Virus record (IMG/VR): IMGVR_UViG_3300009068_000023
DNA: 64,000 nt
Origin: a virus
Direction: 5' to 3' (one strand)
This document shows positions 8,801 through 32,397 of this stretch, one piece after another. The notes beneath the pieces were generated by a model that did not search any database, was not told the origin of the DNA, and saw nothing but the letters and a program-made list of their open reading frames with translations. Position 1 is the first letter of the stretch; each line of letters opens with the position of its first letter. Position numbers and translations under genes: made by a program.

Positions 8801-9924
8801 TTTTAGATAAATCTAAAGCTGCTACAGGGTCTGTTATTAACATATTTGCTGCCTACAAATGGAATCTTAAAAAAATTAACGCTACAGGTAATTTAACTAT
8901 AAGCGGCGGAAAAGCTACCAAGCAAATACCATATTTTAGAGATGATAATGATGGTTCTGGAGAAGAATATTATTTAATGAGAGTACAGCTAGGATCAGTA
9001 ACAGATGATAAGACTAGAGGAACTAACGATGTACTGTCACCTGCTACATTCATAGCTGCTAGTAGTTTTTCAACATCTTCAATAGGCGCATTGACCTGTA
9101 ACTTTGATAAAACATCAGTAGCGGCAGGTAATACATTTACATACAAAGCCAGTGTCGCTAAAGGTATAGATGCAGTTGTGTTAAATTACAATATTACTGG
9201 TGTTGTATCAGATGATATTTGTGGCGCGCCGCTTTCTGGTCAATTAATTACACAAAGAGCTAACACTGCGGATGTTTCTGGATCTGTTGATACCTTCGCT
9301 ACACTTAGCTTTACTTCTAATGCAGCGCTTGCAACTAATAAAAACATTATCGTTACTGCTACCGCGCTTAATAATCAACTAGTATCGCCTGCTATAGTAG
9401 CTGCAGATACATTGTTGATAGCAGCAAGCGCTCCTGCTACACCTCTATATAACTTAACTTGTCAGACTATAGTAGGTACTTATTCGGCAGACTCTATATA
9501 CAATAATACTAGCGCAAAGACTTACGGGTATATAAAATGCTATTTTAATACCTCTAATATAGCAAAAAATGCTAGTCTTACAGTTAAACTATTTAACGAG
9601 ACTCAAAATAAATATGTCATAACAAACGGGCCTAAATCAATTGCTGCTAAATCCCTTAACAATGATTTTAGTATAGCTCTTACCAATAATACCCCTACTG
9701 AAGGGTCACCGTACCTAACTACTAACGGTACTAGTTTAGGTAGTATAGTAGTAACGTATGGCACAACAATAACATATACTGGATATAAGACGGGTGATAT
9801 ATTGAGGGTGGAGATTTATAGTGGTAGTACTAAATTAGCTGAAGCGCGCACCGTAGCTCCTAATCCAACTATCACAGGTACACAGCCTTCCGGTGTTCTC
9901 TTTCAAAAGATAGGATATGCATAA
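2830..9924 (+). CDS. Giant virion structural protein, DUF4815/VrlC-like N-terminal part with C-terminal Calx-beta/Ig-like repeats
   Basis: N-terminus NLNVAPYFDDY..YYKILFRPGVSVQARELTQIQ, plus APGANRLK, DFRP, RYTMGEIGNLESRIKNLEYYTSL and GYFVDNF motifs. 2364 aa. Confidence 0.8.
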   Translation: MSIETNLNVAPYFDDYTDNSNYYKILFRPGVSVQARELTQIQDILQTQVERFGNHVFKSGTIVSGVNFQFYPAYSYVKLLDNQADGQPAIPTEYVNYYAKNTANVQAKIINAKQGLQSTDPDTNYLYLNYINSGDSALETSFANSNVLTIFSKNYEIFDFNVVNGGTSFSNSDTVQITSALLVSNSSINSSAGISQVNGTTVANVYVYEANNNFSITLDNVTYSSNDGYTLLKIKPHTNDLANSAVGAEKWTITSEGFVVQGSNSAYVVGLVGTGASAVLTTDSSGVVTDVSLTNPGTNYIEAPYVTVRSSTGTFNNLEITPQMFKAQVLVADSSYTGGNSTPVGNAYAFGVTEGIIYQKGFFLGVNSQITVVNSYSTNVNSVSVGFVTQEAIVNTNVDSTLLDNATGTPNFAAPGANRLKFIPTLSVVDTANAESNNTFFPLVEFREGQPYKQYKNTLYNILSKEFERRTTETSGNFVVDPFIVSTKDQTTWSNSYFNAVSDPGILYIDGVRVDTQRNTFVPVRRSNDTYILEDQITSINYGSYVLVKELAGFVDTDAAPEVSIYGVPYQYYTKNKSSISFTDTVIGTAKVRSIVYDSGTPGTSSANYRMYLFDVSMRQGYSFSQARSVYYNGVSYDGVADLVLERNNLNKEIAVLKDPKNSSLLFDLSVEGVKSVNSVTYGYRSAVSSANISSNGVASLTISDQFIYGNNATLSANQRKEVILVPLANAISTNTATAELTRNNKFVIGDLLDTYFKPGDSVYLENSANDSIYLYSSVASVSNNTYMVLNDAWPFNSNTSINVSRYLPGNVPVPLDDTRVSVNTNSTGTTLYVNLNGVSPNTFSLSSSVPAAITYNAIKTNFQKLAKLVSRNNYVKICLANNVATTKGPWCLGIPDAFRLNRVFIANSSTVNTNSTVITDNFYIDNGQTSDYYGHAHLAKRNSIARNLSEDQWLLVEFDAFYLGTPSAAGFFSVLSYPLNSNNSTRTAMGNTSINIVEIPEFKLPSGKVLGLENALDFRPRIQSQANYTSNPSTASVNPANTRTFYTSDKLFPIPDSNAIFNYEAYLKRKDRVVVSKAGNIKVVEGTPAYVPVPTEAPADSITISILEIPSYPSLPKVPDSNVVDLFTKRTGTASGLYSRHVNYTVKDVYDVTEASKTPKRYTMGEIGNLESRIKNLEYYTSLNLLDKKTKDINIPSSINPSLDRTKYGYFVDNFNDYLSSDINNKEMTAYIDQEAGRLIPQIKSFNLQARFNYDDSTTLNSLRYSGNVVSEPAPGKWSEHVLMLPSNGEINIISQNRFTSAVNGTGGDTKFVGDMITEPGNLRVAFKVAVKQTDTTLIQESPAIDVTPDDIVSNTDPRYVLSASKREVTEGSNVSISFITVNVANGTSFNYTITGNNITSGDISAALTGTLTVEGNTDVAYANLQINILNDFTTESLETMVFTVNTSPTTSINVNIVSTSSNTEYRTVFTSPTGTDSVGEGQNCYFTFTVSSPQVNTYPYSITGIGITNSDITIRTSSNSTSNVTVDSTGLGGTLTINSTGSCAVYLSVANDAVVEGSEPATFTIAHPAYSSYSFVLTDSTVVNFPLSVSNSSITDGGSATFVLTSTGSISNGTTASYTLSGVEPTDINVPMAGSVTFGNNYANLTFTANSSSLSNGIKTLVYTVTPPSGTNYNTTPASVSTNIRFERDDSASLTCNTFRIAETSTAGFTLTYANGYSGSVPYTITGTSGFTSGDISVGLTGNITVTSGSGTLSVTAANNASGESDETFTLSIPSVADMTTGQALSRSVTITADSGPPPISYRLESSGREVQEGGNIVYTLVTTGIGAGTYNYNITPSTTNGSGITQTDFVTPLSGTITVTGNTTLATGSVTVTVANDIINEADETFAFTVSGTTAAVTGSPSFVTIKNTQVATPTLTCDKRVVYAKTESESTEATVTYTLQVPGAADGTVYPYQIMNVGGSVEPFRYKNDGVLIDSGSVDEDNNPIYVLDKSKAATGSVINIFAAYKWNLKKINATGNLTISGGKATKQIPYFRDDNDGSGEEYYLMRVQLGSVTDDKTRGTNDVLSPATFIAASSFSTSSIGALTCNFDKTSVAAGNTFTYKASVAKGIDAVVLNYNITGVVSDDICGAPLSGQLITQRANTADVSGSVDTFATLSFTSNAALATNKNIIVTATALNNQLVSPAIVAADTLLIAASAPATPLYNLTCQTIVGTYSADSIYNNTSAKTYGYIKCYFNTSNIAKNASLTVKLFNETQNKYVITNGPKSIAAKSLNNDFSIALTNNTPTEGSPYLTTNGTSLGSIVVTYGTTITYTGYKTGDILRVEIYSGSTKLAEARTVAPNPTITGTQPSGVLFQKIGYA

Positions 9925-10427
9925 TGCCTAGTACTACTAATTCTTTAGGATTTACGACCGAAGTAGAAAAAACTACTAGTCGCAATATAAGCTATATTGA
10001 TGCAGTTGCAGAGCAAAGCTTTAAAGTGCGTGTATACGGTTTAAACATTAACACCAAGCTTAATATGTACTCTAATAATAAGAAGGTTAGCTCTAATAAT
10101 ATTATTATGGAAGGTGGTGGCGACTTTAAAACAGATTTCAAAGGTGATGTTGAATTTGTCTATTACTATAAAGAAGCTCTTTCCGAGCTAACAAACGTAT
10201 CTGAAACAGCATATCTAGATTATTTAAATAGAAACTCTGGCAGTCTAACTTTAGTAGCTGTTGATTCTGCATCAATTAGTAGTAATACATTGCCTGTTAA
10301 TTACAGAGATATTGCTAGATGCTATTCTGAATGCATAATAAATAAAACATACGACCCTCAAGTAACAACTAATTACTACGTGGAAATTAAAGAAGTGGGT
10401 AACACTTCTCCCACAACAAATGGTTAA
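9924..10427 (+). CDS. Structural protein, probably a detached middle segment of the DUF4815/VrlC-like protein
   Basis: FKVRVYGLNINTKL...FKTDFKGDVEF resembles the GLKPNT...TD..G segment of such proteins. TAATG coupling. Confidence 0.55.
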   Translation: MPSTTNSLGFTTEVEKTTSRNISYIDAVAEQSFKVRVYGLNINTKLNMYSNNKKVSSNNIIMEGGGDFKTDFKGDVEFVYYYKEALSELTNVSETAYLDYLNRNSGSLTLVAVDSASISSNTLPVNYRDIARCYSECIINKTYDPQVTTNYYVEIKEVGNTSPTTNG

Positions 10428-10435
10428 AGGTTCAC

Positions 10436-12607
10436 ATGACTATAGTAGCTGATTTTGCACAAACGTTTCTAGTTGACAGTAATGCGGTTCTCAAGTCACC
10501 ATACGTTTTCCTTTCTAAAATCGATTTGTATTTTAAAAATAAACCAAGTGCTGCGTCTTCGTCTCAGACAAGCACTGGTGGTGTTTCTGTACAGCCTGGT
10601 GCAACTGTTTATATTTGTGAAACAGAAAACATAAACAATATCGCTACTCCAAAGCTTAACACATATATTAAATACGGACGCGCCCGTGTTGAATATGCAA
10701 ATATTAACACATCAACTACTGGACAATCTGCTACAACGTTTAGATTTGATATTCCTGTACCTATTTCAACAGACAAGTTTTATGCATTCGTAATTAAATT
10801 AGATAGCGGCGATTCGCAATTTGCATTGTGGCGAAACAAGGCAGGAGAAACATACAACGAAACACAAAGCTCCCCTGTTACAAAAGGGGCATTAGATGGC
10901 CAGTTCTTTGTTCTTACTAACGGCACATCCTTAACACCTCTAACAGATACAGATTTAAAATTTAATATCTCATCAGCAGTATTTCAACAGACACCCACAT
11001 TATACAATGCTGTTAACAGAGATATGGAATATGTAACATTCTTTAAAGATTTCTCTACTGGTAGGTTAATAGGTGGGGAATCAGTGTTTTGTAATACCGG
11101 ATATGTCACTGCTCAAACTGTTGCCATTGTTGCAGGTAACAATATAGTTCGCGGAGTTAGTACTGTATTTACTACTAACTTTACTGCCGGCGATACTATC
11201 GTATTAAACTCTGGCAACACGAATATTATTCGTAGAATTAATAGTATTTCAAACAACACAACACTATCACTTTCATCACCCGTACCAGTAACTAATTCGT
11301 CGGCTAATTATTTAATAGCACCTACTGCAAGAGTAGTAGATTTTAACAAGCAAAAAGGATTTGTTATTTTAGGCGGCTCGAGTGCTAATTCTACCTATAA
11401 TTTTGCTGCTAATAGCACCAGCAATACTATAGTAGGGGAGCTTTCTGGTTCTTCAGTTAAAATTTCATCAGTTGAAAATTATCCAGTAAATCAATTTTTA
11501 TCTGAATTTAAAATTCTTGCTCCAGTAGACACTACTACCAATACGTACGTTAATTTTTCTAACTCGACATATGTAACAGTAGACAGCGATATAGAAGTTA
11601 GACAATTTAAAAAGACTAATGTAGTAGAATACAAAGCCTATTGCAGCTCAAGATCTAATGAAGTAAGCAATCCTGCGTTTCTTAATAATGATAAATCAGT
11701 TAATTTTTATCTACTATTTGATACTGATAATCCATTTCTTACCCCGGTACTCGACGAAGAAGATATGTTGTTTCATGCAACATCCGTCTATGCTGATGCT
11801 AATTACACAGACGAAGAATTACCAGGAAAAGGTAAATCAGCTGCAAAGTATATTGGTCGCGATGTAAGCTTAGCAAAGGGCGTTGTTGCGGAAGATATAA
11901 AAGTATATTTAACCGCACATCAACCAGCAGGCACTGAACTACAAGTATATGTAAGCTTCTATAATGATAACGATGGTGACATAAAAGATAATAAACTTTG
12001 GACCAGATTAAAGAATGTGTCTCCAGATAATCTGTTTAGCGCTGTAGATAATGAAAATGACTTAGTGGAACTAGAGTATGATCTGTCATATTATCCATTA
12101 TCTAGTTATGACAATACAGTCTCAGGTAGAGCAGTCACTGGTACATTCACTATTAATTTTGACGGCAAAGATAGCTATGCAGCTAGAACCTTGATAGGCA
12201 CTAGCGGGTTTATTAATGATGTGGTTAGTCCAGGTAATCTAGTAAGAATTTACAACCCGCTATTCCCGGATCAATCAGTTATTTCCGAAGTAGAAGGGGT
12301 GTATGAAAATAGAATTAGAATTACTAGAGATATAAATTATTATGTTAACGGTGATAGTGAACAAGATGCTATTAATCTTAAGCTTGCTTCATTTGCTTCA
12401 GGGGGCCTAGTAGTAGAAGTTCTAGACTACCCTGGCACTGCATTCAAAGACTATTTAAATTCTGGTAAACTAACTTATCACTCTAGTGAGCTGAGTGTTG
12501 TAGAAGGATATACAGCCTTTAAAGTTAAAATAATTTTAGTATCAGATTCTACTACTGGTTATTATCCGTCAGTAAGTGACGTTAGAGCAATCGCGCTATC
12601 CGTATAA
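10436..12607 (+). CDS. Structural protein, C-terminal segment of the DUF4815/VrlC-like protein
   Basis: AQTFLV..FLSKIDLYFK, DLKF and terminal FKVKIIL...YPSVSDVRAIAL motifs. Confidence 0.7.
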   Translation: MTIVADFAQTFLVDSNAVLKSPYVFLSKIDLYFKNKPSAASSSQTSTGGVSVQPGATVYICETENINNIATPKLNTYIKYGRARVEYANINTSTTGQSATTFRFDIPVPISTDKFYAFVIKLDSGDSQFALWRNKAGETYNETQSSPVTKGALDGQFFVLTNGTSLTPLTDTDLKFNISSAVFQQTPTLYNAVNRDMEYVTFFKDFSTGRLIGGESVFCNTGYVTAQTVAIVAGNNIVRGVSTVFTTNFTAGDTIVLNSGNTNIIRRINSISNNTTLSLSSPVPVTNSSANYLIAPTARVVDFNKQKGFVILGGSSANSTYNFAANSTSNTIVGELSGSSVKISSVENYPVNQFLSEFKILAPVDTTTNTYVNFSNSTYVTVDSDIEVRQFKKTNVVEYKAYCSSRSNEVSNPAFLNNDKSVNFYLLFDTDNPFLTPVLDEEDMLFHATSVYADANYTDEELPGKGKSAAKYIGRDVSLAKGVVAEDIKVYLTAHQPAGTELQVYVSFYNDNDGDIKDNKLWTRLKNVSPDNLFSAVDNENDLVELEYDLSYYPLSSYDNTVSGRAVTGTFTINFDGKDSYAARTLIGTSGFINDVVSPGNLVRIYNPLFPDQSVISEVEGVYENRIRITRDINYYVNGDSEQDAINLKLASFASGGLVVEVLDYPGTAFKDYLNSGKLTYHSSELSVVEGYTAFKVKIILVSDSTTGYYPSVSDVRAIALSV

Positions 12608-14175: not shown

Positions 14176-16605
14176 ATGGCTGCAAATACTCAAGACTTTA
14201 GAGTTAAAAACGGTATTGTTGTTAATAATACTGCAACTATTGGAAATACTGTAAGTATATCTGGTAATGTAACTATTAACGGAAAGTCACTTATCATAGA
14301 TAATCCAACAGGGCTATCTATCAACGCCACAGGTCGTTCAGTCTTAGGAAACTCAGTAACCGTTTCTAAAGGTAATCTTACTGTAAGTAATGGTGCCTTC
14401 AGTGTAACGTCGGCCAATGCAACACAATCTACAGTCTTCACAGTAAACACAGAGACAGTAACAGTATCAGGGAATCTTACTGTTACTGGTATTGCAACAT
14501 TCCAATCAGCCCAAAGACTAGAGATTGGTACAGGAGACATTCTTCTCTATTCTGCTCTTACTGGCGCTCCGGCAGGTAATGCCTCTATCACAGTAAACCG
14601 CGGTACTAGTCCAGATGTTTATATTCTATGGGATGAAACTACTAGTACCTGGAAGTTTACTAACGACGGCACATACTTCTTTCCTATACGCACATACAGT
14701 GATCTAGTTTATTCGTTTGATACTTCTACTACTATGAGCACTGCTCCAGTAAGTGGAAGATTACGTCTTAACAATGCTAACTATTCTCTTGCTACTATTG
14801 TATCTTTCAGCTCTAGTGAGTTTGGAGGTAATAGTACTTCTAATATTTGGAGTGCTGTTGGAAGTAGTAGTAGTGCTAATAAAGCCCTTCTGTATATTAG
14901 ATCAAGTGAAAATACTAATGAATTTGCTGTCTACAGAATAACTAGTGCTGCAGACACAAGTGTAACTGGCGCAATTAAATTTAACATTACATATTTGGGT
15001 GGAGTTACTTCAGGCCTTACATCGTTAGAAAATGTAACTGTGCAAGTCTCTCTATCAGGCGATAAAGGTGAAGTAGGGTCAAAGGGCGATAAAGGTGATA
15101 TAGGTGTTACCGGGGCAAAAGGTGACAAGGGTGATACCGGCACAGCCGGCTCAAAAGGTGATAAAGGTGAGGTAGGTACTAAAGGTGACAAAGGCGATAA
15201 GGGCGATATAGGAACTACTGGTGGTAAAGGTGACAAGGGAGATACAGGCTCCGCAGGAAGAGAAGCTGGTATACCTTACACATTTAGTGTATCAACAACT
15301 GAAAGTGCTTCTCAACCTCCTATAGGTGGAGCTATTTTTAACTCCGCTACATTAGGATCGGTAACGTCTATTACTGTAAGAAAGGTTGACGGTAATATTA
15401 ACGACAGTAATAATTTGTTTAATGCGTTTGGTAGCTATGGCAATACTACTCTTAAAGGTTTGCTTACTGTACGTAATACAGCTAATACATCACAGACAGC
15501 ACTATTTAACGTTAGCAGCATATCAGAAGGTAGTCAAGCAACAAACAAATTATTCACAGTTTCAAATATTAATAACGGGTATACTGCAGTATTCCAGGAT
15601 ACCTCATCCCTACTATTTACATTTACTCCTAACGGGTTGGGTAGTAAAGGGGATACTGGTACGACTGGTACGGCCGGTTCCAAAGGTGATAAAGGCGACC
15701 AGGGGGCTAAAGGCGACAAAGGAGACCTAGGTTCTACTGGCACCAAGGGTGACAAAGGTGATCAGGGTGCTAAAGGTGATAAGGGAGACGCTGGGTCTAA
15801 AGGTGACTCAGGAACCAGCGGGCTTACTGCTGGTATAAACTATCTGTTTGATACAGGTACAACAGAATCCGTATCAGCTCCAGGTATTGGTTCACTTATT
15901 TTTAATAGCGCAACTCCTTCAAGTGTTACTGCAATTACCGTAAGAAATATAGACAATACTGGTGCTAACAATCAGCTCTTAATTAGTAATTACAATAACC
16001 TAGGCAATACTACGTTTAAGGGTTATCTTGAAATTACTAATATTGCTAATACTTCTCAAACCCTATTATATTCAGTAAGCAGCACTGCAGCAGGTAGCCA
16101 GGCTTATAATTCTAAATTTAATGTAACTAATATTACTGGCAGCTATAATTCACCATTTTTAACTGGTGCTAATCTTGCAGTACAATTTTCCGGAACTGGA
16201 TTGAGTATTAAGGGCGATAATGGTACTACCGGTGCAAAAGGTGACAAGGGAGATGCATTCACTACCCTTACAGCTTACACCGAAACAGTTAATACAGCTA
16301 CAGTCTCCACATCAACCTATAATATAGATTTAAGTCTATCCAATATCTTTAATTTAACTCTTGCTACTAGTGTAACGTTTACATTTACTAACCCACCAAC
16401 GGTAGGGTTTACAAAACCAGTAACAGTTATCTTAAAACAAGATGGTACTGGTTCAAGAACGGCATCATTTACAGGTGCTAAGTATACTGATGCAGTTAGC
16501 CCGGTGCTAACTACAACTGCTAATAGGTCTGATGTTCTTACATTCTTTACATTAGATGGTGGAACATCATATTTTGGTACTTTTGCTATGGCCAACGTCG
16601 CTTAA
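14176..16605 (+). CDS. Collagen-like tail fibre protein (GDK repeats separated by duplicated globular domains)
   Basis: Two long Gly-X-Y tracts (about 15058-15258 and 15640-15822) plus a short one. Duplicated AGI.Y.F...TTES domain. C-terminal LKQDGTGSRT...DVLTF domain common in fibres. Confidence 0.75.
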   Translation: MAANTQDFRVKNGIVVNNTATIGNTVSISGNVTINGKSLIIDNPTGLSINATGRSVLGNSVTVSKGNLTVSNGAFSVTSANATQSTVFTVNTETVTVSGNLTVTGIATFQSAQRLEIGTGDILLYSALTGAPAGNASITVNRGTSPDVYILWDETTSTWKFTNDGTYFFPIRTYSDLVYSFDTSTTMSTAPVSGRLRLNNANYSLATIVSFSSSEFGGNSTSNIWSAVGSSSSANKALLYIRSSENTNEFAVYRITSAADTSVTGAIKFNITYLGGVTSGLTSLENVTVQVSLSGDKGEVGSKGDKGDIGVTGAKGDKGDTGTAGSKGDKGEVGTKGDKGDKGDIGTTGGKGDKGDTGSAGREAGIPYTFSVSTTESASQPPIGGAIFNSATLGSVTSITVRKVDGNINDSNNLFNAFGSYGNTTLKGLLTVRNTANTSQTALFNVSSISEGSQATNKLFTVSNINNGYTAVFQDTSSLLFTFTPNGLGSKGDTGTTGTAGSKGDKGDQGAKGDKGDLGSTGTKGDKGDQGAKGDKGDAGSKGDSGTSGLTAGINYLFDTGTTESVSAPGIGSLIFNSATPSSVTAITVRNIDNTGANNQLLISNYNNLGNTTFKGYLEITNIANTSQTLLYSVSSTAAGSQAYNSKFNVTNITGSYNSPFLTGANLAVQFSGTGLSIKGDNGTTGAKGDKGDAFTTLTAYTETVNTATVSTSTYNIDLSLSNIFNLTLATSVTFTFTNPPTVGFTKPVTVILKQDGTGSRTASFTGAKYTDAVSPVLTTTANRSDVLTFFTLDGGTSYFGTFAMANVA

Positions 16606-16943: not shown

Positions 16944-18518
16944 ATGCCTTTAGGTTTAAGAACAACACTCCGCCGAACTCTAGTTAACGCTGGATCAATT
17001 ACCTTAAACTCTGGTACAGGCAATCTTACATTACCTTTTGGGGTTGTAAGTATAAGTGGCACAGGTAGAGGAGGGGCAGGTACTGCAGGTACTGGCGGCA
17101 CAGGGGGCACAGCAGGCACAGCCGGTTCAGCAGGTAATCCTGGTAGTGCAGGTAACCAAGGCAACCCTGGTAATAATGGTTCGGGGGGTCCAGGCGGACC
17201 TGGAGGCCCTGCTGGAAATCCAGGTACTGCAGGCAACGCAGGAAATCCAGGGAATGCTGGTGGCGGCGGTGCTGGAGGTGCTGCAGCAAGCTCATCTACT
17301 AATTTGCAATATATGTCAGGTGGTTATGCGTATTACTATCAAATAGACTCTAAGGGTCGACCTGTAATAAACGGGTGGGGTAAAGCTGGAGAAACTTCTA
17401 ACCCAGGCCCTGGCGTATCTACAACCCCATTTAAGTGGCCATATAGTGACGGCGGGCCTGGTCTACCTGGAACAGCAGGCAACCCAGGCAGCGATGGGTC
17501 CGGCGCCGGCGCCGGTGGTGCTGGTGGTGCAGGTTCAAGTGGTGGTAGTGGTACTGCTGGCACACCAGGCTCAGCAGGTAATGGTGCTGGATCAGGAGGG
17601 CTAGGTAATGATGGCTCTCCAGGTAATTCTGGTACTTCGGGTAATTCAACCACGTTTAGCAATTATACTTTTCCTGGCACTTCTGGAAATAGTGGCACTA
17701 AAGGTAGCAAGGGTACTGATGGCACTGCTGGAAATAATGGTACTGGTGGTAACGGAGGTACAGCGGGATCTGCTGGTAACCCAGGAAATTCAGGGTCATC
17801 TGGCAACCCAGGTAACAATGGGACAGGAGGTTCCGGAGGGTCAGCAGGAACAGGGGGTGCTGGTGGTGGCGGTGGATATGGATATGTTTTTGGTAGTACT
17901 ACGGGCCTTTTTGGTGGGGCTGGTGGCGCCGGTGGTAGCGCAGACCCTATAGTAGGATCATCATATAGTGGCGGACCAGGTAATGCGGGAGTTTCTACAG
18001 CTACACCAGGTACCGGACAGGTCGTTGCCGGTAACGGTGGTACTGCATATGGGTTAGCTACTTTTGGTGCTGGTGCTATACGAAACGGTAATGGAAACTC
18101 TACAGGAGGTAGCGGCACACCGGCTAATTATACATGGGGTGGTGGGTCGGGATCAGGTGGAGCAGCTAGATGGGTAAATACTAATTCTAAAGCTGCTGGT
18201 GGTGGCGGTGGCGGTGGGGGCGCTGCATCAGCTAATCCAATTTCTGGTAATCCAGGAAATTCTGGTAATCCAGGTAATACAGGGAGTAGCGGAAATTCCG
18301 GTTCCGGTGCTAATCCAGGCAATCCTGGTAATAGCGGAAACCCTGGAGTTGCTGGTAGCGCTGGCATCCCTGGTACTAAAGGGGCTGATGGTACGATAAG
18401 TAGTGTTACCACTTCAAATTGGTCAGGTAAATTTAATTTAAAGCAGAATGTTCCTTACTCAGTGGGTAGTGGTCCGGGCGGCGCCGGTCAAATAACTATT
18501 ACATGGACTAGACAATGA
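16944..18518 (+). CDS. Glycine-rich (G-X-X, GNP/GTA/GSA) putative adhesin, polyglycine-II type
   Basis: Mostly Gly-X-X triplets with aromatic-rich inserts. Termini LTLPFGVVSI...GRGG and GGAGQITITW resemble glycine-rich adhesin domains. Confidence 0.65.
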   Translation: MPLGLRTTLRRTLVNAGSITLNSGTGNLTLPFGVVSISGTGRGGAGTAGTGGTGGTAGTAGSAGNPGSAGNQGNPGNNGSGGPGGPGGPAGNPGTAGNAGNPGNAGGGGAGGAAASSSTNLQYMSGGYAYYYQIDSKGRPVINGWGKAGETSNPGPGVSTTPFKWPYSDGGPGLPGTAGNPGSDGSGAGAGGAGGAGSSGGSGTAGTPGSAGNGAGSGGLGNDGSPGNSGTSGNSTTFSNYTFPGTSGNSGTKGSKGTDGTAGNNGTGGNGGTAGSAGNPGNSGSSGNPGNNGTGGSGGSAGTGGAGGGGGYGYVFGSTTGLFGGAGGAGGSADPIVGSSYSGGPGNAGVSTATPGTGQVVAGNGGTAYGLATFGAGAIRNGNGNSTGGSGTPANYTWGGGSGSGGAARWVNTNSKAAGGGGGGGGAASANPISGNPGNSGNPGNTGSSGNSGSGANPGNPGNSGNPGVAGSAGIPGTKGADGTISSVTTSNWSGKFNLKQNVPYSVGSGPGGAGQITITWTRQ

Positions 18519-18778
18519 ATTATACGTTCACATATAAAATTATAAAAGCAGATGTTACTTCAGGTAATATGCTTGTTAAGTACACCCCGCTTGATGGTGA
18601 ATTAACTGCGATTACTCTTAACATCAGTGTTGTTTTTGATGAAAACAACAATCCTATTCCTTTGGAGCAATTAATAGAAATGTATGCACCACAGGCTCAA
18701 TGGGCTGCTCAAGCATATATCAAAGATAATTATGAAGATTTAATTAATAAAACTGGAAATATAACCCCTACTCTGTGA
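18515..18778 (+). CDS. Hypothetical protein
   Basis: 87-aa ORF with ATGA overlap to the upstream gene. Confidence 0.65.
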   Translation: MNYTFTYKIIKADVTSGNMLVKYTPLDGELTAITLNISVVFDENNNPIPLEQLIEMYAPQAQWAAQAYIKDNYEDLINKTGNITPTL

Positions 18779-18785
18779 GATTTTT

Positions 18786-19367
18786 ATGAATGATTTTATT
18801 GGTGTATATGATGATGTGGTAACCCCAGAATACTGTGATAGTCTTATAAACTATTTTAAATGGTGTAAGGATAATAATAGGACTTGGAATAGGGATGAAT
18901 GTAGTACCCTGTCCAAAGAGGATGTTTCTACCACTCTTAATCCTATGAAGCAGACCGAAATTAATTTTAGTTATGATAATTTAGGGGGGTTTATAGCTGA
19001 ATTTAATGAAGTATTTTGGAAAAATAGCTATAAACAGTATACTACAAAGTATGATATTCTTAATACGTTTAATAATCATACTATTTATTCTTATAAATTA
19101 CAAGAAACAGAACCGTCTCAAGGGTATCATGTGTGGCATAGCGAGCAAGGATCGCTAGAATATAGTAGAAGAATAGCAGCGTACATTTTGTATTTGAATG
19201 ATGTTATTGAAGGTGGGGAAACAGAATTTTTATATTTAAGTAAGCGTATTGCAGCGAAAAGAGGAAGACTAGTTATATTCCCTGCAGGTTATACCCACAC
19301 CCATCGTGGCAATCCCCCCTTATCTGGCACAAAGTATATTATGACAGGATGGGTGGAGTATTCATAA
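18786..19367 (+). CDS. 2OG-Fe(II) oxygenase (prolyl-4-hydroxylase-like superfamily)
   Basis: Motifs HVWHSE, YLNDVIEGGETEF and FPAGYTHTHRGNPPLSGTKYIMTGW. Confidence 0.9.
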   Translation: MNDFIGVYDDVVTPEYCDSLINYFKWCKDNNRTWNRDECSTLSKEDVSTTLNPMKQTEINFSYDNLGGFIAEFNEVFWKNSYKQYTTKYDILNTFNNHTIYSYKLQETEPSQGYHVWHSEQGSLEYSRRIAAYILYLNDVIEGGETEFLYLSKRIAAKRGRLVIFPAGYTHTHRGNPPLSGTKYIMTGWVEYS

Positions 19368-19966
19368 TGTCTCTTTATAGCTTCTTACCGGCATCAGCTA
19401 GAAAAACTGCATATGAGCCATTTATTACCTGGAGAGAAGCTTTTGATGCAAGACAGGTCTCAGATATAATTAACATGTGCGAAAAGCTACCTGCATCAGA
19501 TGGTATTGTGGGAGGGCTTAAAGGTGATGTTAATACTCAAATTAGAGTCTCAAAAACTGCGTGGTTAGACAATTCAGAGCCTCATCAGTGGATATATGAA
19601 AAAATGGCTTTTTTGGCCAGAAGTATTAATAGTGATTTCTACAGATTTAATCTCTACGGGTTTGTAGAAGATATGCAGTATACGATATATACTGGAGATG
19701 AGGAAAGCCATTATACCTGGCATATAGACGCTGGTAAAAATACTGATTGTGCTAGAAAGCTTTCTTTGGTATTACAGCTTTCAGATCCTGAAGAGTACGA
19801 AGGTGGCGATTTAGAGATATTAACTGGTCCAGAACCTCTTACAGTGGATAAAGAAAAAGGAATGCTGGCTGCCTTTCCTAGTTATGTCCTGCATAGAGTG
19901 ACGCCAGTAACAAAAGGAATAAGAAGATCTTTGGTAGTATGGGTTGCAGGACCTGACTTTATATAG
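19367..19966 (+). CDS. 2OG-Fe(II) oxygenase (PKHD/P4H-like)
   Basis: Motifs YTWHID, KLSLVLQLSDPEEYEGGDL and FPSYVLHRVTPVTKGIRRSLVVW. Start placed at the TAATG overlap (19367). Confidence 0.9.
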   Translation: MSLYSFLPASARKTAYEPFITWREAFDARQVSDIINMCEKLPASDGIVGGLKGDVNTQIRVSKTAWLDNSEPHQWIYEKMAFLARSINSDFYRFNLYGFVEDMQYTIYTGDEESHYTWHIDAGKNTDCARKLSLVLQLSDPEEYEGGDLEILTGPEPLTVDKEKGMLAAFPSYVLHRVTPVTKGIRRSLVVWVAGPDFI

Positions 19967-22639: not shown

Positions 22640-22831
22640 ATGGAAGTTGATTTTGTTAATGCCTACATAAACAGGCAGAAGCAGTATATTGAAGATTTAA
22701 CAAATAAACTTATACTGGCGGAAGCTAAGATCGTTACTTTAGAAAAAACAATTAACGATCTTAGCAATAAAATAGTTGATTATGAAAGCAAGACGGTGAA
22801 GCCAAGTGAAAATAGTCGTACTAAATCTTGA
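22640..22831 (+). CDS. Small coiled-coil protein
   Basis: 63 aa with a heptad pattern; overlaps the next gene's start. Confidence 0.6.
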   Translation: MEVDFVNAYINRQKQYIEDLTNKLILAEAKIVTLEKTINDLSNKIVDYESKTVKPSENSRTKS

Positions 22832-24770
22832 TACAAGAAAAGACAGATTAGATTTTATTTCAGAGCAGCTTAGCGAGTACGAATGGACCAGATTACCGGC
22901 CATAAACGGACACTCGTTAAGCTTATCTAATATAAGAGCATTAGGGTTTAAGCCTTACCTTAGGTGGCAGGACCCAATGCTACATCGACACGCAACTATA
23001 ACAGAAGTTGCAACCAGCATATCGCATTATAACGCGTGGATGCTTTGTGCTGAGCTCAATCACAACCTATTGATTCTTGAAGATGATTCAAGACTAGTAG
23101 GGCATATTGACTCAGAAGAAATCGATAGACTTCTTGAAACACAAGATGTAGTATACCTGGATCACAAAGAGATGTTTCCAGGTCATGTGCAGAATATAGA
23201 TGATAAATTTATACGGCCATATTACCCTTATTGGAATAATGCTTACGCTATAAGCCCAAGGCTTGCTAAGAAGCTAGTTAATTCCAAGTTTAAGGAAAAC
23301 ATTATACCGGTTGATGAGTTCTTTCCGCTTATCAGTGGTGTTAACTATCTACACACCTGTCTGACAGATAAGCCAGGCATACTTAATAATTTTACTGCAT
23401 TAGTAGATATTTTTAAAGATCTTATACCTACTAACCCTATAGCCTATAAAACTAGTATATTTAATCAAGTATCTAGATCGGTACTTGGCTCTGATATTGA
23501 AAGTGGAGAATCCATAATGACTCAAGAAGCAATCGTTGTCACCGTTGCTACAGACTCTGAAAAATACAAATACCTTAGTAAGTCAAGTGCGGCTAAAGAG
23601 GTACCGATTATAAACATCGGCGATGGTGTAGAATGGAAGGGTGGTACAATGCAAGGACCGGGCGGTGGTCAAAAGATTAATTTAGTTAAAGATTATCTTA
23701 AGAGCATTGACGGTAATAAGATTGTATTGTTCTGCGATGGTCATGATGTCATCATTAATGATTCATTAGAGACTATCGTGAATAGATTCTTAGGGTTTGA
23801 ATGTGACGTGCTTTTTGCAGCTGAAAAGATCTGCTGGCCTGATCGTTCCATGGAACAGTATTTTACTGAATCACATACCGCATACAAGTATCTAAACAGT
23901 GGAGTATACATTGGATACAAGGACTCTATCCTTTCCATCATAGATGATTATATACAGGATTCGGATGATGATCAACTATTTTTACAGAAGAAGTATGTAG
24001 AGAATAAGAGTAATAATAAGGTTAATATCAAATTAGATTATGAGAATTATATCTTTCAATGCTTAAGCTCTATTGAAGATGATTTAGTATTAAAGCCAAC
24101 AAAGCAATTTGTTAATATTGCTACTAGATGCTGCCCATGCATCTTACATGGTAATGGCGGGCCAAATGATAAGATTGTTTTTAATAACATCTTCCAACAG
24201 CTCTATCCAGATATTATAGAATTTATTGATGCTACAGAGCTTACAGTAGTAGCACCAGACATCCTAGAGATGGATTTTCTTACCCCAGAGATGTGTAAGA
24301 AAATTATAGACATGGCTGAAGCACATGGTAAATGGGAATCGATGTACGGTGATAAGTTTCCAGGACAAGAATTAAGAATCAGAGAGTTTAGTATGGAGCT
24401 CTGGAATACTTTAGAAAAGCATTTTAAAGAGTCGATCAACCCGGTGATAGAAAAGTATTGGTTTCCGCTATTAATGAATGGTTTGCGGGATGCTTTCATT
24501 ATTAAGTATTCACCAGAAACCCAAAAGAGTCTTAACTGTCACCATGATGCCTCTTTAGTTTCAGGAAACGTAAAGCTGAATGATGATTACGAAGGCGGAG
24601 ATACTTATTTTTATAGGCAAAACTTCTCTAATATAAATACTCAAATAGGTAAGATTATTTTATGGCCTGGCCAAGTGACACATGGACACGAAGGTCGAGA
24701 AGTAACCAAAGGCACTAAATATAATCTAGTAATATGGACAAGTAGAAAGCAGGGCGACATTAATTATTAA
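22806..24770 (+). CDS. Three-domain fusion: GT25 (COLGALT-like) + PLOD/LH3-type glycosyltransferase + 2OG-Fe(II) lysyl-hydroxylase-like domain
   Basis: GT25 motifs: NLDTRKDR, SHYNAW, ILEDD, YW..AYAIS, IPVDEF. PLOD GT motifs: TVAT, GGGQK, FCDGHDV, FAAEKICWP, YLNSGVYIG, DDDQLF, HGNG. Hydroxylase motifs: FIIKYSPETQKSLNCHHDAS, DYEGG, PGQVTHGHEG, GTKY. GTG start. Confidence 0.85.
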   Translation: MKIVVLNLDTRKDRLDFISEQLSEYEWTRLPAINGHSLSLSNIRALGFKPYLRWQDPMLHRHATITEVATSISHYNAWMLCAELNHNLLILEDDSRLVGHIDSEEIDRLLETQDVVYLDHKEMFPGHVQNIDDKFIRPYYPYWNNAYAISPRLAKKLVNSKFKENIIPVDEFFPLISGVNYLHTCLTDKPGILNNFTALVDIFKDLIPTNPIAYKTSIFNQVSRSVLGSDIESGESIMTQEAIVVTVATDSEKYKYLSKSSAAKEVPIINIGDGVEWKGGTMQGPGGGQKINLVKDYLKSIDGNKIVLFCDGHDVIINDSLETIVNRFLGFECDVLFAAEKICWPDRSMEQYFTESHTAYKYLNSGVYIGYKDSILSIIDDYIQDSDDDQLFLQKKYVENKSNNKVNIKLDYENYIFQCLSSIEDDLVLKPTKQFVNIATRCCPCILHGNGGPNDKIVFNNIFQQLYPDIIEFIDATELTVVAPDILEMDFLTPEMCKKIIDMAEAHGKWESMYGDKFPGQELRIREFSMELWNTLEKHFKESINPVIEKYWFPLLMNGLRDAFIIKYSPETQKSLNCHHDASLVSGNVKLNDDYEGGDTYFYRQNFSNINTQIGKIILWPGQVTHGHEGREVTKGTKYNLVIWTSRKQGDINY

Positions 24771-24786
24771 CACTGTATATACAGTG
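24771..24786. repeat. Perfect 16-bp palindrome CACTGTATATACAGTG
   Basis: Directly visible between the enzyme stop codon and the RBS of the collagen gene. Confidence 0.85.
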
Positions 24787-24799
24787 ATTACGGAGCCAA

Positions 24800-27816
<3,017 letters not shown>

Positions 27817-27817
<1 letters not shown>

Positions 27818-29112
27818 TGTCATTTGGAGTATTTCAGTTTAGAAGAGGTAGCGCCTCAGATTGGTCAACTGCTAATACAGTACTAGCAGCCGGTGAGCTT
27901 GGTATAGAAACAAATACTAGCCTGTTTAAAATAGGTGATGGTTCTACTGCCTGGACAAATCTACCTTATGGCGGTATACAAGGTATTAAAGGTGATAAGG
28001 GTTACGGAGACAAAGGCGAAAAAGGTGATGTAGGGCCTAAAGGTGATATCGGCAACAAAGGCGACAAAGGTGATACCGGTAATAAGGGTGACACCGGCCT
28101 AACCGCAACTCTTCTCTATGAAGAGTTTACAGCTACTAGCGATCAAACTACTTTCTATCCTTCTACATTCACAGCAAACACCGGCGGTGTACGAGTATTT
28201 TATAATGGTGTTTTATTAAGTAATACTGAGTACACATCAAACACAACTGCAATTGTTCTTTCTTCAGGTGCAACTGCTAGTGACTTGGTTGCTGTATACG
28301 GTTACGATCGAATAAGCCCTAAAGGTGATAAGGGTGAGACACCTGCTGTAAGCAACTTTAATTTTACAGCAGCAAACAATCAATCAGTGTTCTTAATGTC
28401 AGGGATTACCACCCTAGGTAATATATTAGTACACTTAAATGGCATATTCCTTTCTAATACAGAATATACCGCAAACACTTCAAGAGTAACTCTCAACTTA
28501 CCTGCAGCAAATAACGATATACTTGACGTAGTAGTATTTGATAGTGCAGGTGTCAAAGGTGAAAAAGGCAGCAATGCGGCAGGCCCCTGGTTTGAGAATA
28601 TTAGATTTGTTACTACAGACAGCACTATCACAAACACAGCTATTTCATTCACAGAAGGAATAGCGCCTCTACAGGTAAACAACTATACTACAATTACAGT
28701 TGATCGCGCAGCTACTTGGACAGTTGCAGATAATCTAGCAGTAGATTATACTAAAGGCTTACCAAATTATGTTGTAGATAATCTTTCTAATGTATTTGAC
28801 GGGCAGACAAGATCGTTTAAACTGTCATCAAATGGTGTTTCTATAACGCCATTTAACGGTGCAAGCTTAGATTTGTATATAAACGGAACTAAGCAATTGC
28901 CGGCTAGATATATAAATGATTACTACAATTTACCAGAAGTTTCAGTGTTTAGTTCGGGATACTATGTTAATGGGTCTACTTTATATCTGTCCTCAGCGCC
29001 CACATTTGGGACCGCTTTCTATTGCACAGCCAAAGTAGCTGACACTGTGAAAAACTTTAACAATTACCAAAAACAAACACCATTTAAACCATTAAGTATA
29101 ATGCTTGATTAA
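27817..29112 (+). CDS. Collagen-containing fibre protein with Mtd/hyaluronidase-type N-terminal anchor
   Basis: FQFRRGSASDW..AN.VLA.GELGIET....FKIGDG...W..LPY, then a GXK tract and FTA domains. Confidence 0.75.
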
Positions 29113-29121
29113 GAGGACAAC

Positions 29122-32100
29122 ATGGCAAAACGTGTTATTTTAGATACTCAGTATACATTTACCCCTTCTACAAAGACAATAGTAATCCCTAGAGTCGTTC
29201 TAAGAGAAAGACTATTACTAATTACTAACGTTACTACTAACGCTGTAATTTACAACTTTAGCGATCCAGCACTTACCGCTACAAGCTATACGGTTACGCA
29301 AGGAACGGTTACCACAAACCCAACTACTACAATCGTATTAAATTATAATACCGGTAGTATGTCGGCCACTGATAAGTTGCAGATTGTAGTTGATGAAATT
29401 AGTGAATCATTTATTCCTGACGAGTCTATTATTGACCCAGTAGGTAAGATGAGAATTTCTTCTCCTCAAGCTTTGATTGATACTGACTTTGAATACGGGT
29501 TGCAACCTACAAAGTGGGAAACCCTCTCGCTACTTAACATGCAGCCAAGCTTTTTTGTCAACACACAAACCCCTATTGTAATTACAGATATTCAAGCAAC
29601 AAATGGTTCAACTACGGTTACAGTATCGACAACTACCCCACCTGCGGTTGGCACACCAGTTCTTATTCAAGATAGCTTGTTTACCGGTGGCAACGGGCCT
29701 TTCGTAGTAGATTCAGTATCAGCTGGTACTAATTTCACATATACTGCAAGAACGCCATTTACAGGTTCATCTGGCTCAGTATATAACTCAACATTATCGT
29801 TTGTATTCGCTGGTAGCTTTTATTCAAATGCAAGTATGCCACAAGCAACTGCTATGACTAATAGTGGTGTTGTAGTTACAGTAACTACAACCAACCCTCA
29901 CGGTCTTCAGATAGGCGATGGTATCTATGTAACAGGTTCAACCGCATCATCTAATGCACCTAACGGTACATGGCAGGTTAGTTCGGTACTAAGCAGCACA
30001 TCTTTTAACTTTGTTGTAGTAAATGCGCCATCCGGATCAATTTCCGGTGGCACAATTTACCCCAGACCAGACGGTGTATATCAACATAGAGCATTTGACG
30101 GCGGTGTTCAGTTTACTACAGGCAATCAAGCGCACAATATTCAAACTATTCGTCAAACAAGAAGATACTTTAGATATCAATCTGGCAAAGGCATTCAAGT
30201 TAGTACAGGTACAAGCTTAAAGCCAAACATTAACGTAGATAAGATTACATCGTCTGGAACAGTAGCAACCGTTACTACAAAAGCACCTCACTACATTAGT
30301 TTTGGTACAACTTTTATTATTTCAGGCTGTAATGAAACAGCATATAATGGTACCTTTACAGTAACTTCAGTAGTCAGTGATAACCAATTCACATATAGTA
30401 CATTAACAACCCCCACTGCAACGCCTGCAACTGGTATACCCGCTCTGTCAGTATCTAGCTGGTATGGCGCAACAACCAGAACCGGATTATTCGATTTCCA
30501 GAATGGTGTATTTTTTGAATTTGATGGTCAAACTCTTTACTGTGTAAGAAGAAGCTCAACTACACAATTGTCCGGCTTCTTTAACGTTACTAACGGCTCG
30601 TCAACAGTAACTGGCGCAACCGTTAACGGGGTATCACCTTCACTATCGTCACAACTAGTGCCTGGTGACTTTATAGTTATTAGAGGGATGTCATTCAGAG
30701 TTCTAAATATTGCAAGTGACACCTCTATGACAGTTTCGCCTCCTTATAGAGGAGCAACTCTATCAGGTACGAACGTCTGTATTATTTCTAAGACTATCGA
30801 TACAAGAGTTCCGCAAAACTTATGGAACATTGATAAGATGGACGGTACTGGCCCATCTGGTATGAACCTTGATCTTACTAAGATGCAAATGTTCTATCTT
30901 GACTATAGCTGGTACGGCGCTGGTACAGTAAGATATGGATTCAGAGATACACAAGGTAGAGTAGTTTACGTCCATAGGTTTGTTAACAATAACCAGAATA
31001 CTGAAGCGTACATGCGTTCTGGTAACTTGCCTGCCAGATACGAAACCAATACTATTGCACCATTTACGAATCTTGCAGCAACGTTGGCATCAAGCGCAAC
31101 AACAATGTCGGTTGGTAACACTACTGCATTCCCAACAACTGGTACAGTTTATATTGATAACCCAAGCAATCCTGAGTATGTGTTTTATTCAGGCAAGACA
31201 GCTACAACACTTACCGGTCTTACAAGAGGTAAGGCAGCCACAACCGTAACAATGACAAGAACGAGCGGCAGCTCAACCTTAACATCAACAAACTCAGTAG
31301 CTGGTCTGCAAGTAGGCATGTTAATTTACGGTACAGGTATTCCAAATAATACCTATGTTGCGTCTATTACCACCGGGGCATTTAATACAGTGGTCATGTC
31401 CAGAGCTGCATCAAGCTCAGGCTCCTCTACTTACAGCTTTGCTAATATGGGTAATGCAACGGGAGATGTAACTCATACATTCTCTGCTACTGCTCCTATA
31501 TCAGTGTATCTACATTCACCACAATTCTCACCGACGATTAGCCACTGGGGTACGTCAGTAATTATGGACGGACAGTACGATAACGATAAGTCGTTGCAAT
31601 TTACCTACGGTGAAACAACAACTACCACTGCAATTGCTGGTAACGTTGCTTCAGTAACTATTGGTTCAGGCTCAAATACATTTAGCGTTGTTAATACTAC
31701 ACCGATCTTCCCTGGTATGTTAGTGGCAGGTAGCAATATTCCTTCCGGCGCAATAGTTACAGCCGTGTCCGGCGGCAACCCAAACAACACTATTACAATG
31801 AATAGACAGGGGTCAGGCTCCGGTTCTACAACAGTAACGTACAATAGTGCTGTTGCTCTTGCAACTCTAAGAGTTACGCCTTCAGTTGATTCTGGTGTTA
31901 CTGGTGTACTTGGCTCAAAGGAAATTGTTAACCGTATGCAGCTCACGTTGCAAAACTTGGACGTGCTAGTTAACGGGGTGTTCTTGATTCAGCTAATTCT
32001 AAATGGCGCGCCGATTGCACCAACAACTAGCACAACAACAAGCTATACCGGTGCCACAGCAGCATTAAGCACCTTCGGTCCTATTGCTACTGGTACATCA

Positions 32101-32397
32101 AGTCTTGCCCAGATTGCTGACCATACAGGCCCTGTATATGTCTCAGGCGGTGAAGCGATGTTTAGCTTCTATGCTGTGAACAACGCCGGTTCTACTAACT
32201 ACTCCGTAGCAGCTGCTGCTCTTAACATGCTACGAGATCTAGGTAATAGTATTCTTGGTGGTGGTACAACTAACACACCAGGTGCTGCAGGTGTTTACCC
32301 AGACGGTCCAGATACGCTTACGATTGTTGGTATTAACATCGGTAGCTCGAATGCTCAAATTCAAACACGTCTATCCTGGACAGAAGCACAAGCTTAA
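29122..32397 (+). CDS. Large virion structural protein
   Basis: 1091 aa, Thr/Ser-rich beta domains; motifs IDTDFEYG, QTRRYFRYQSGKG and YSWYGAG; SD GAGGA. Confidence 0.7.
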   Translation: MAKRVILDTQYTFTPSTKTIVIPRVVLRERLLLITNVTTNAVIYNFSDPALTATSYTVTQGTVTTNPTTTIVLNYNTGSMSATDKLQIVVDEISESFIPDESIIDPVGKMRISSPQALIDTDFEYGLQPTKWETLSLLNMQPSFFVNTQTPIVITDIQATNGSTTVTVSTTTPPAVGTPVLIQDSLFTGGNGPFVVDSVSAGTNFTYTARTPFTGSSGSVYNSTLSFVFAGSFYSNASMPQATAMTNSGVVVTVTTTNPHGLQIGDGIYVTGSTASSNAPNGTWQVSSVLSSTSFNFVVVNAPSGSISGGTIYPRPDGVYQHRAFDGGVQFTTGNQAHNIQTIRQTRRYFRYQSGKGIQVSTGTSLKPNINVDKITSSGTVATVTTKAPHYISFGTTFIISGCNETAYNGTFTVTSVVSDNQFTYSTLTTPTATPATGIPALSVSSWYGATTRTGLFDFQNGVFFEFDGQTLYCVRRSSTTQLSGFFNVTNGSSTVTGATVNGVSPSLSSQLVPGDFIVIRGMSFRVLNIASDTSMTVSPPYRGATLSGTNVCIISKTIDTRVPQNLWNIDKMDGTGPSGMNLDLTKMQMFYLDYSWYGAGTVRYGFRDTQGRVVYVHRFVNNNQNTEAYMRSGNLPARYETNTIAPFTNLAATLASSATTMSVGNTTAFPTTGTVYIDNPSNPEYVFYSGKTATTLTGLTRGKAATTVTMTRTSGSSTLTSTNSVAGLQVGMLIYGTGIPNNTYVASITTGAFNTVVMSRAASSSGSSTYSFANMGNATGDVTHTFSATAPISVYLHSPQFSPTISHWGTSVIMDGQYDNDKSLQFTYGETTTTTAIAGNVASVTIGSGSNTFSVVNTTPIFPGMLVAGSNIPSGAIVTAVSGGNPNNTITMNRQGSGSGSTTVTYNSAVALATLRVTPSVDSGVTGVLGSKEIVNRMQLTLQNLDVLVNGVFLIQLILNGAPIAPTTSTTTSYTGATAALSTFGPIATGTSSLAQIADHTGPVYVSGGEAMFSFYAVNNAGSTNYSVAAAALNMLRDLGNSILGGGTTNTPGAAGVYPDGPDTLTIVGINIGSSNAQIQTRLSWTEAQA

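Follow-up and report, generated by a model that had tools for sequence, protein, structure and literature searches.

A 654-residue phage protein that joins COLGALT-like, LH3-like and lysyl hydroxylase domains and probably modifies lysines of collagen-like phage fibres

The 64,000-nucleotide stretch of virus DNA analysed here (IMG/VR record IMGVR_UViG_3300009068_000023; hereafter the window) encodes a 654-amino-acid (aa) protein at positions 22806–24770 of the plus strand. Three domains follow one another in this protein: a GT25 glycosyltransferase (GT) of the COLGALT1 catalytic type, a GT of the PLOD/LH3 type, and a PLOD-type Fe(II)/2-oxoglutarate lysyl hydroxylase (LH). The domains are homologous to known collagen-modifying enzymes and share their folds, their catalytic and acceptor residues are conserved, and the gene is genomically linked to lysine at the Y position of Gly-X-Y repeats in neighbouring collagen-like genes. 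As judged from sequence, hydroxylation and glycosylation of Y-position lysines in the phage's own collagen-like fibres are most probably the work of this enzyme. Collagen hydroxylysine glycosylation is viewed as animal chemistry, and only mimivirus has so far been characterised as an exception; the phage carries the complete catalytic set in one small, signal-peptide-free protein that is common in marine phages.

The three-domain organisation, which a sequence-only reading of the window had proposed, was returned alike by Pfam, by a PDB sequence search and by Foldseek comparison of an AlphaFold2 model, and every domain found its expected relative among COLGALT1, LH3 and mimivirus L230. Domain 1 (aa 1–235; 22806–23510), domain 2 (aa 238–466; 23517–24203) and domain 3 (aa 478–654; 24237–24767) all lie on the plus strand. 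Pfam assigned Glyco_transf_25 (PF01755) to aa 2–172 (7e-12, 46 bits versus a cut-off of 24) and GT_PLOD (PF25342) to aa 240–461 (3e-57, 194 bits versus a cut-off of 27), while 2OG-FeII_Oxy_3 matched aa 567–645 at 5e-5, under its curated cut-off; a search of NCBIfam assigned no family. In the PDB, the whole protein matched LH3 at 2.5e-49, the GT and LH domains forming two separate stretches, followed by mimivirus R699 (1e-35), the C-terminal catalytic domain of COLGALT1 (1e-13) and the LH domain of L230 (5e-10). The AlphaFold2 model, built from 70 relatives of the enzyme, has a pLDDT (predicted local distance difference test) of 94 and a pTM (predicted template modelling score) of 0.75. Foldseek aligned it with the LH3 GT domain (6wfv; template modelling (TM) score 0.88, root-mean-square deviation (rmsd) 2.1 Å), R699 (rmsd 2.3 Å), COLGALT1 (9e-15, about 235–250 residues at 3 Å) and the L230 LH domain (6ax6; TM score 0.76, rmsd 2.2 Å over 172 residues).

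Several parts of the animal enzymes are missing. The accessory domain of LH3 found no counterpart in the PDB sequence search: the alignment skips from LH3 chain residue 258 to 563, and about 12 residues join domain 2 straight to domain 3 in the model, which bears out the loss suggested earlier. The N-terminal non-catalytic GT domain of COLGALT1 is also absent, and the protein opens directly with a catalytic-type domain. Because the chain starts with the first strand of a Rossmann-like fold, it is read as having no signal peptide, in agreement with the cytoplasmic location previously assumed. Conservation was counted over 70 relatives with 25–62% identity to the enzyme. The metal ligands and catalytic residues of all three domains are invariant among them, and the functional residues mapped from COLGALT1 and LH3 are nearly all invariant or more than 90% conserved. 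The E-values, together with conservation over hundreds of relatives, exclude a chance match.

Whether domain 1 sides with COLGALT or with the GT25 enzymes of lipopolysaccharide (LPS) synthesis had been set beforehand as a test of the proposal, and sequence, Foldseek and acceptor residues all favour COLGALT1. The isolated domain matched only COLGALT1 in the PDB by sequence (2e-14), while neither the GT25 lipooligosaccharide β-1,4-galactosyltransferase of bacteria (8xlz/8xc8) nor mimivirus R655, both present in the search library, was matched at E ≤ 10; Foldseek ranked COLGALT1 (9e-15) ahead of R655 (3e-8) and bacterial 8xlz (1e-6). Residues were mapped onto human COLGALT1 through a HMMER alignment, with roles taken from PMC12987934 and PMC11897130. 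The uridine diphosphate (UDP) contacts L348, R354, G377 and S415 correspond to L8, R14, G35 and S73 of the phage enzyme; E435-D436-D437, which bind Mn2+ and ribose, correspond to E92-D93-D94; the catalytic base D522 is D170; and its neighbour E523, mutation of which lowers activity, is E171, with the EDD motif, base and neighbour kept in 70 of 70 relatives. On the acceptor side, K121 stands for K470 of the acceptor cleft (K or R in 62/70), and Y142-W143 for the hydroxylysine clamp Y494-W495 (Y in 67/70, W in 45/70). The bacterial enzyme shares with domain 1 the Pfam family, the GT-A fold and the EDD and (P)xDE motifs, but it has no counterpart of K470 or Y494-W495: when 8xlz was aligned with a 900-residue relative of the phage protein, Glu was found at the first position and Trp-Gly at the second. 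The acceptor residues discriminate between the COLGALT-like domain and this bacterial GT25 enzyme.

For domain 2, LH3 numbering follows the PDB-search alignment, and the roles of PLOD-GT residues are those given in PMC13382579. The Mn2+ triad of LH3 (D112, D115 and H253) is represented by D311, D314 and H448, each present in 70 of 70 relatives. The uracil-stacking W75 of the glycoloop is retained as W277, and the conserved W145 as W344. D388-D389-Q390 corresponds to D190-D191-Q192, which we take to be the poly-Asp stretch of LH3; D388 and D389 are invariant in the 70 relatives.

Domain 3 aligns with LH3 over aa 483–644 and keeps the Fe(II) triad: H579, D581 and H628 stand at the positions of LH3 H667, D669 and H719 in all 70 relatives. 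V624 takes the place of L715, which anchors the LH3 dimer. The LH domain was predicted to form a homodimer: it scored 0.81, whereas none of three controls exceeded 0.00; runs shared at least 96% of their contacts, partner pLDDT was at least 89, and the interface included residues 621–625 with V624. Of 30 proteins whose solved structures are pairs of one chain, 20 reach the mark used for a homodimer, as does 1 of 23 whose solved structures are single chains. Since similar dimers of L230 and LH3 have been solved and the prediction may be a memory of them, passing this mark indicates likeness to those dimers, not binding.

The gene that follows the enzyme (24800–27817, plus strand) encodes a 1005-aa collagen-like tail fibre with 130 Gly-X-Y triplets, in which lysine occupies Y in 71 and aspartate X in 57, with no proline; this fibre is proposed as the main substrate. 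A second fibre of 431 aa (27817–29112, plus strand) combines Mtd_N with a collagen repeat of 14 triplets, seven with lysine at Y, and a third collagen-like fibre of 809 aa (14176–16605, plus strand) has 49 triplets, 24 with lysine at Y and 24 with aspartate at X. X-Lys-Gly is the consensus target of lysyl hydroxylases and of COLGALT1 (PMC12987934).

That such Gly-X-Lys fibres are the likely substrate, as the sequence-only reading held, gains support from a contrast in Y-position lysine over 160 loci. At least 560 IMG/VR loci encode the enzyme. We compared 80 loci anchored on it with 80 loci anchored on a homologue of a neighbouring virion protein (29122–32397), none of which (0/80) carries the enzyme. 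Collagen-like open reading frames (ORFs) occurred in 60 of the 80 enzyme-bearing loci, where 8848 triplets had lysine at Y in 26.1% and at X in 0.05%. In the enzyme-free set they occurred in 20 of 80 loci, where 2830 triplets had lysine at Y in 0.4% and at X in 0.2%. All Y-position lysines of the latter set came from one locus (L175), whose contig holds no enzyme elsewhere but is only about 23% complete, so that this absence carries no weight. After removal of duplicate signatures, at least 10% lysine at Y was found in 44 of 52 collagen-bearing loci with the enzyme and in 1 of 19 without it (Fisher p ~1e-9); the locus sets are related and not phylogenetically independent, so this p-value overstates the evidence, although the contrast is still near-absolute. 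The same pairing is seen in cultured phages. A tail fibre of S-CAM9 has lysine at Y in 22 of 59 triplets and is encoded two genes upstream of a pair of oxygenases and of the enzyme; for CRP-6 the count is 26 of 99. A Pfam check of five phages gave collagen hits for S-CAM9 alone, whereas DSL-LC03, S-BM3 and Melnitz had none, a sample too small to be used by itself. Six enzyme-free fibre modules (L113, L127, L135, L150, L169 and L170) have no lysine at all in their collagen-like fibres; their triplets carry glutamine at Y (up to 314 of 327) or proline at X (326 of 360).

The phage enzyme would be cytoplasmic and self-contained, and the fibres would be modified before their triple helices fold. 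In a first step, the Fe(II)/2-oxoglutarate domain at the C-terminus would hydroxylate the Y-position lysine of Gly-X-Lys-Gly, probably as a tail-to-tail dimer. The COLGALT-like GT25 domain would then place a first hexose on the new hydroxyl, with D170 acting as the base and E92 and D94 holding the Mn2+-UDP-sugar, and the central LH3-like domain would attach a second hexose. We infer the activities, the order of the steps, what the substrate is and which sugars are attached: galactose (Gal) then glucose (Glc) as in animals, or Glc and Glc-Glc as has been proposed for mimivirus. The galactosylation and glucosylation named in the sequence-only reading are thus one candidate scheme of two. A wider picture is put forward tentatively, as a distinct possibility rather than an expectation: the three domains, all active, would act one after another in the cytoplasm of the bacterium and leave disaccharide-bearing hydroxylysine (Hyl) on the collagen-like fibres of virions of many abundant marine T4-like and other phages. 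An animal-type modification would thus be carried out by an accessory-less enzyme of 654 residues that moves between phages as a cassette with genes of lysine-bearing fibres.

Several observations weigh against this interpretation. In domain 1, 25 of 70 relatives have Leu, His or Met in place of W143, and the lid loop of COLGALT1 (Y561–E580, with S569 and T571) lies beyond the ends of the HMMER alignments; a conserved S229-D230-x-E232 in the family is only a candidate for its counterpart. In domain 2, the uracil-stacking Y114 of LH3, mutation of which inactivates that enzyme, is His313; Tyr stands here in 66 of 70 relatives, and His is shared with one other of the 70. In domain 3, the 2-oxoglutarate-binding R729 corresponds to Lys638, so that a basic residue is kept (K in 65 and R in 5 of 70), and the second, non-catalytic Fe site of LH3 (H595, D597, D611 and H613) is lost, with E522 and R524 at the positions of D611 and H613. 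Finally, lysine at Y followed by Gly-Asp is a known salt-bridge pattern that stabilises the triple helix, and salt bridges could account in part for the Gly-Asp-Lys repeats even if nothing were modified.

The same enzyme could act on the same fibres with mimivirus-type chemistry, in which the GT25 domain would add Glc and the PLOD-type GT a second Glc, yielding Glc-Hyl and Glc-Glc-Hyl; we consider this possible but somewhat unlikely. It is consistent with the transfer of Glc from UDP-Glc by the GLT25D1-like domain of L230, the only viral GT25-like domain of this kind to have been characterised (PMC9614988), and with R699, an LH3-GT homologue that may prefer a Glc-Hyl acceptor (PMC12279948) and ranks second among the PDB relatives of domain 2 (1e-35). 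Nevertheless, a tree of PLOD-GT domains places the phage domain no nearer to giant-virus-like than to animal forms, and no donor-specificity residue is assignable by sequence, the LH3 position V80 being occupied by Met282. It appears improbable that only two steps take place and that one of the GT domains is non-catalytic, a scaffold or a module for binding sugar nucleotides comparable to COLGALT1's N-terminal domain or LH3's accessory domain. Degenerate GT-A domains do occur in animal enzymes (PMC12987934), the uracil-stacking Tyr of domain 2 is His313 here, and natural two-domain GT_PLOD-LH proteins of 417–444 aa exist; a scaffold, however, would not need the E92, D94 and D170 of domain 1 or the D311, D314, H448, D388 and D389 of domain 2 that are kept by every one of the 70 relatives. 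It is very improbable that the enzyme modifies host LPS or other host or phage molecules instead of the fibres: its relatives carry JGI and GenBank names such as 'GR25 family glycosyltransferase involved in LPS biosynthesis' and '2OG-Fe(II) oxygenase', and a two-domain homologue of Kaistia terrae lies among polysaccharide glycosyltransferase genes, but the GT25 domain keeps COLGALT1 peptide-acceptor residues that the bacterial GT25 enzyme lacks and has no sequence match to bacterial GT25 structures, the gene is tightly linked to Y-position lysine in neighbouring collagen-like genes, and the Kaistia locus has a collagen-like ORF too.

Hydroxylation and glycosylation of the phage's own fibres, the reading we prefer, has a precedent in mimivirus. 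L230 (895 aa) consists of an N-terminal GLT25D1-like glycosyltransferase with EDD and a C-terminal PLOD-like hydroxylase (PMC9614988; PMC9546862), and both hydroxylation of lysine and addition of glucose to hydroxylysine were demonstrated on collagen substrates (PMC9614988 section 3.3.3; PMC9546862). L230 had been cited in the sequence-only reading as a PLOD-like hydroxylase and glucosyltransferase. The two activities stand, whereas its glycosyltransferase is the N-terminal domain of GLT25D1 type, and a fusion of GT25 with a hydroxylase had therefore already been characterised (PMC9614988). It is therefore established through L230 that a single viral chain can join GT25 and LH for the virus's own collagen. 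Like the phage enzyme, L230 is a viral one-chain combination of a GT25-like domain with EDD and a PLOD-type LH, accompanied by its own proline-poor, lysine-bearing collagen-like proteins; the LH folds are similar (TM 0.76), and L230's tail-to-tail dimer is predicted for the phage enzyme as well. L230, by contrast, comes from an amoeba-infecting giant virus and exceeds the phage enzyme by 240 residues, with a long stretch in the middle of its chain, while the phage enzyme lacks an accessory domain, serves a virus that infects a bacterium and shows modest sequence likeness in the LH domain (5e-10). By analogy with relatives of about 900 residues, L230 is probably built of GT25 and a full LH3-like chain.

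Human LH3/PLOD3 and COLGALT1/GLT25D1 (KOGG complex 8zgc; 6fxk; 9evj) offer the same three modules, with conserved metal, donor and acceptor residues and an X-Lys-Gly target. In animals these are two proteins that associate in a non-covalent complex (PMC11897130), which the covalent fusion of the phage mirrors. The phage enzyme has neither the LH3 accessory domain nor the N-terminal domain of COLGALT1, a signal peptide or an endoplasmic reticulum setting, and it differs at R729 (Lys), at Y114 (His) and in the missing second Fe site. The collagen glucosyltransferase R699 (9dyt) matches domain 2 in its catalytic domain (1e-35, rmsd 2.3 Å), but it is a stand-alone protein of GT and accessory domain that dimerises, whereas domain 2 lies between two other catalytic domains. 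The phage enzyme has both glycosyltransferase types intact and is the smallest such combination in this analysis; it is a compact phage form in a field where GT25-hydroxylase fusions and GT25/PLOD chains of about 900 residues already exist. A literature search that left out most subscription journals turned up no publication on a lysyl hydroxylase or COLGALT-like enzyme of phages. The protein raises the questions of hydroxylysine glycosylation of phage fibres and of its effect on fibre stability or host recognition, and an enzyme of the bacterial cytoplasm may offer a route to modified recombinant collagen.

The family is large. The enzyme has 631 matches in 90% clusters, with all three domains in most of the matches listed, and 3906 in clusters at 50% identity, of which 241 are at E ≤ 1e-30. 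GenBank holds only 11 phage records with it, labelled 'hypothetical protein' or '2OG-Fe(II) oxygenase'; cultured carriers are Synechococcus phages S-CAM9, S-PRM1 and S-8S53/55/56 and Roseobacter phage CRP-6. Only six contigs matched among 185,579 prokaryote genomes, mostly short contigs of metagenome-assembled genomes. The cultured alphaproteobacterium Kaistia terrae DSM 21341 has a two-domain PLOD-GT and LH gene (7902–9236 of locus L177) on a 1.13-Mb chromosome contig (NZ_JAPKNH010000001.1); its 444-aa product is 48% identical to aa 244–654 of the phage enzyme. Genes for an autotransporter, LtrA, RgpF, a methyltransferase and a multi-glycosyltransferase protein surround it, a partial collagen-like ORF stands at the start of the locus, and a scan of nine ORFs there revealed no recognisable phage gene.

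In a relative with 57% identity (L043; IMGVR_UViG_3300047284_000558, 10001–11937), a pair of genes with an overlap of 7 nucleotides (nt) takes the place of the single one, one for a GT25 protein of 229 aa and one for a PLOD-GT/LH protein of 417 aa. The break falls at a domain boundary and coincides with an in-frame ATG of the window at 23517 (M238), which supports the view of the fusion point as a former gene junction. A second, PLOD-only isoform started from this ATG was considered and rejected; M238 is not kept in distant relatives, and we read it as a scar of the fusion. Metagenomic proteins of about 900 residues (P0162, P0171 and relatives) combine a COLGALT-like GT25 domain with a complete LH3-like chain behind it, accessory domain included. 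The contig of one of them (L182) measures 82 kb and carries HSP70 and EI24 genes, and this neighbourhood alone suggests a giant-virus origin. In the unrooted PLOD-GT tree, animal and ~900-residue forms make up one supported group (SH-aLRT (Shimodaira–Hasegawa-like approximate likelihood ratio test) 96). The phage forms fall into several clades beyond this group, and two-domain forms occur here and there among those with three domains. The tree gives no direction of transfer and does not settle the bearing on the origin of the pathway that the sequence-only reading had suggested. Phage-type variants longer than the 654-aa enzyme also occur (P0124, 942 aa; P0127, 875 aa). One longer variant has two GT25 matches ahead of PLOD-GT and LH, and another an N-terminal TylF/Methyltransf_24 methyltransferase fused ahead of GT25 and PLOD-GT.

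The whole gene (22806–24770, plus strand) starts with GTG and ends with TAA (24768–24770). The alignment of its N-terminus, VKIVVLNL, with MKIFVINL of full-length relatives backs the GTG start, and reading of the sequence places a Shine-Dalgarno-like GGTGA at 22795–22799 (plus strand), 7 nt before it. All motifs quoted in the sequence-only reading are present in the protein: EDD at 92–94, PVDEF at 168–172, DGHD at 311–314, HHDAS at 579–583 and THGHEG at 625–630, besides TVAT, GGGQK, CWP, LNSG, DDDQL and HGNG. The spacing of 29 nt between the stop codon and the ATG (24800) of the Gly-X-Lys collagen gene was likewise borne out. This spacer holds a perfect 16-nt palindrome, CACTGTATATACAGTG (24771–24786, plus strand), just ahead of GGAG (24792–24795), the ribosome-binding site of the fibre gene.

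The window is the structural region of a T4-like myovirus and encodes a sheath protein, a portal, a terminase and a major head protein. The last is 68% identical to that of Stenotrophomonas phage DLP_6, 64% to that of Methylophilales phage Melnitz and about 62% to those of cyanophages. A fourth collagen-like protein (16944–18518) has another type of repeat: its 87 triplets have Asn, Thr or Ser at X and Ala, Gly or Pro at Y, with lysine at Y in 3 and proline in 16. Its gene is followed by those of two stand-alone 2OG-Fe(II) oxygenases, the first of which (18786–19367) matches best the collagen prolyl 4-hydroxylase of Bacillus anthracis (4e-7) and the second (19349–19966) PKHD/PiuC-type hydroxylases. 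The region 16944–19966 may be a second, proline-directed modification cassette. In S-CAM9, the same two oxygenases are encoded immediately upstream of the three-domain enzyme.

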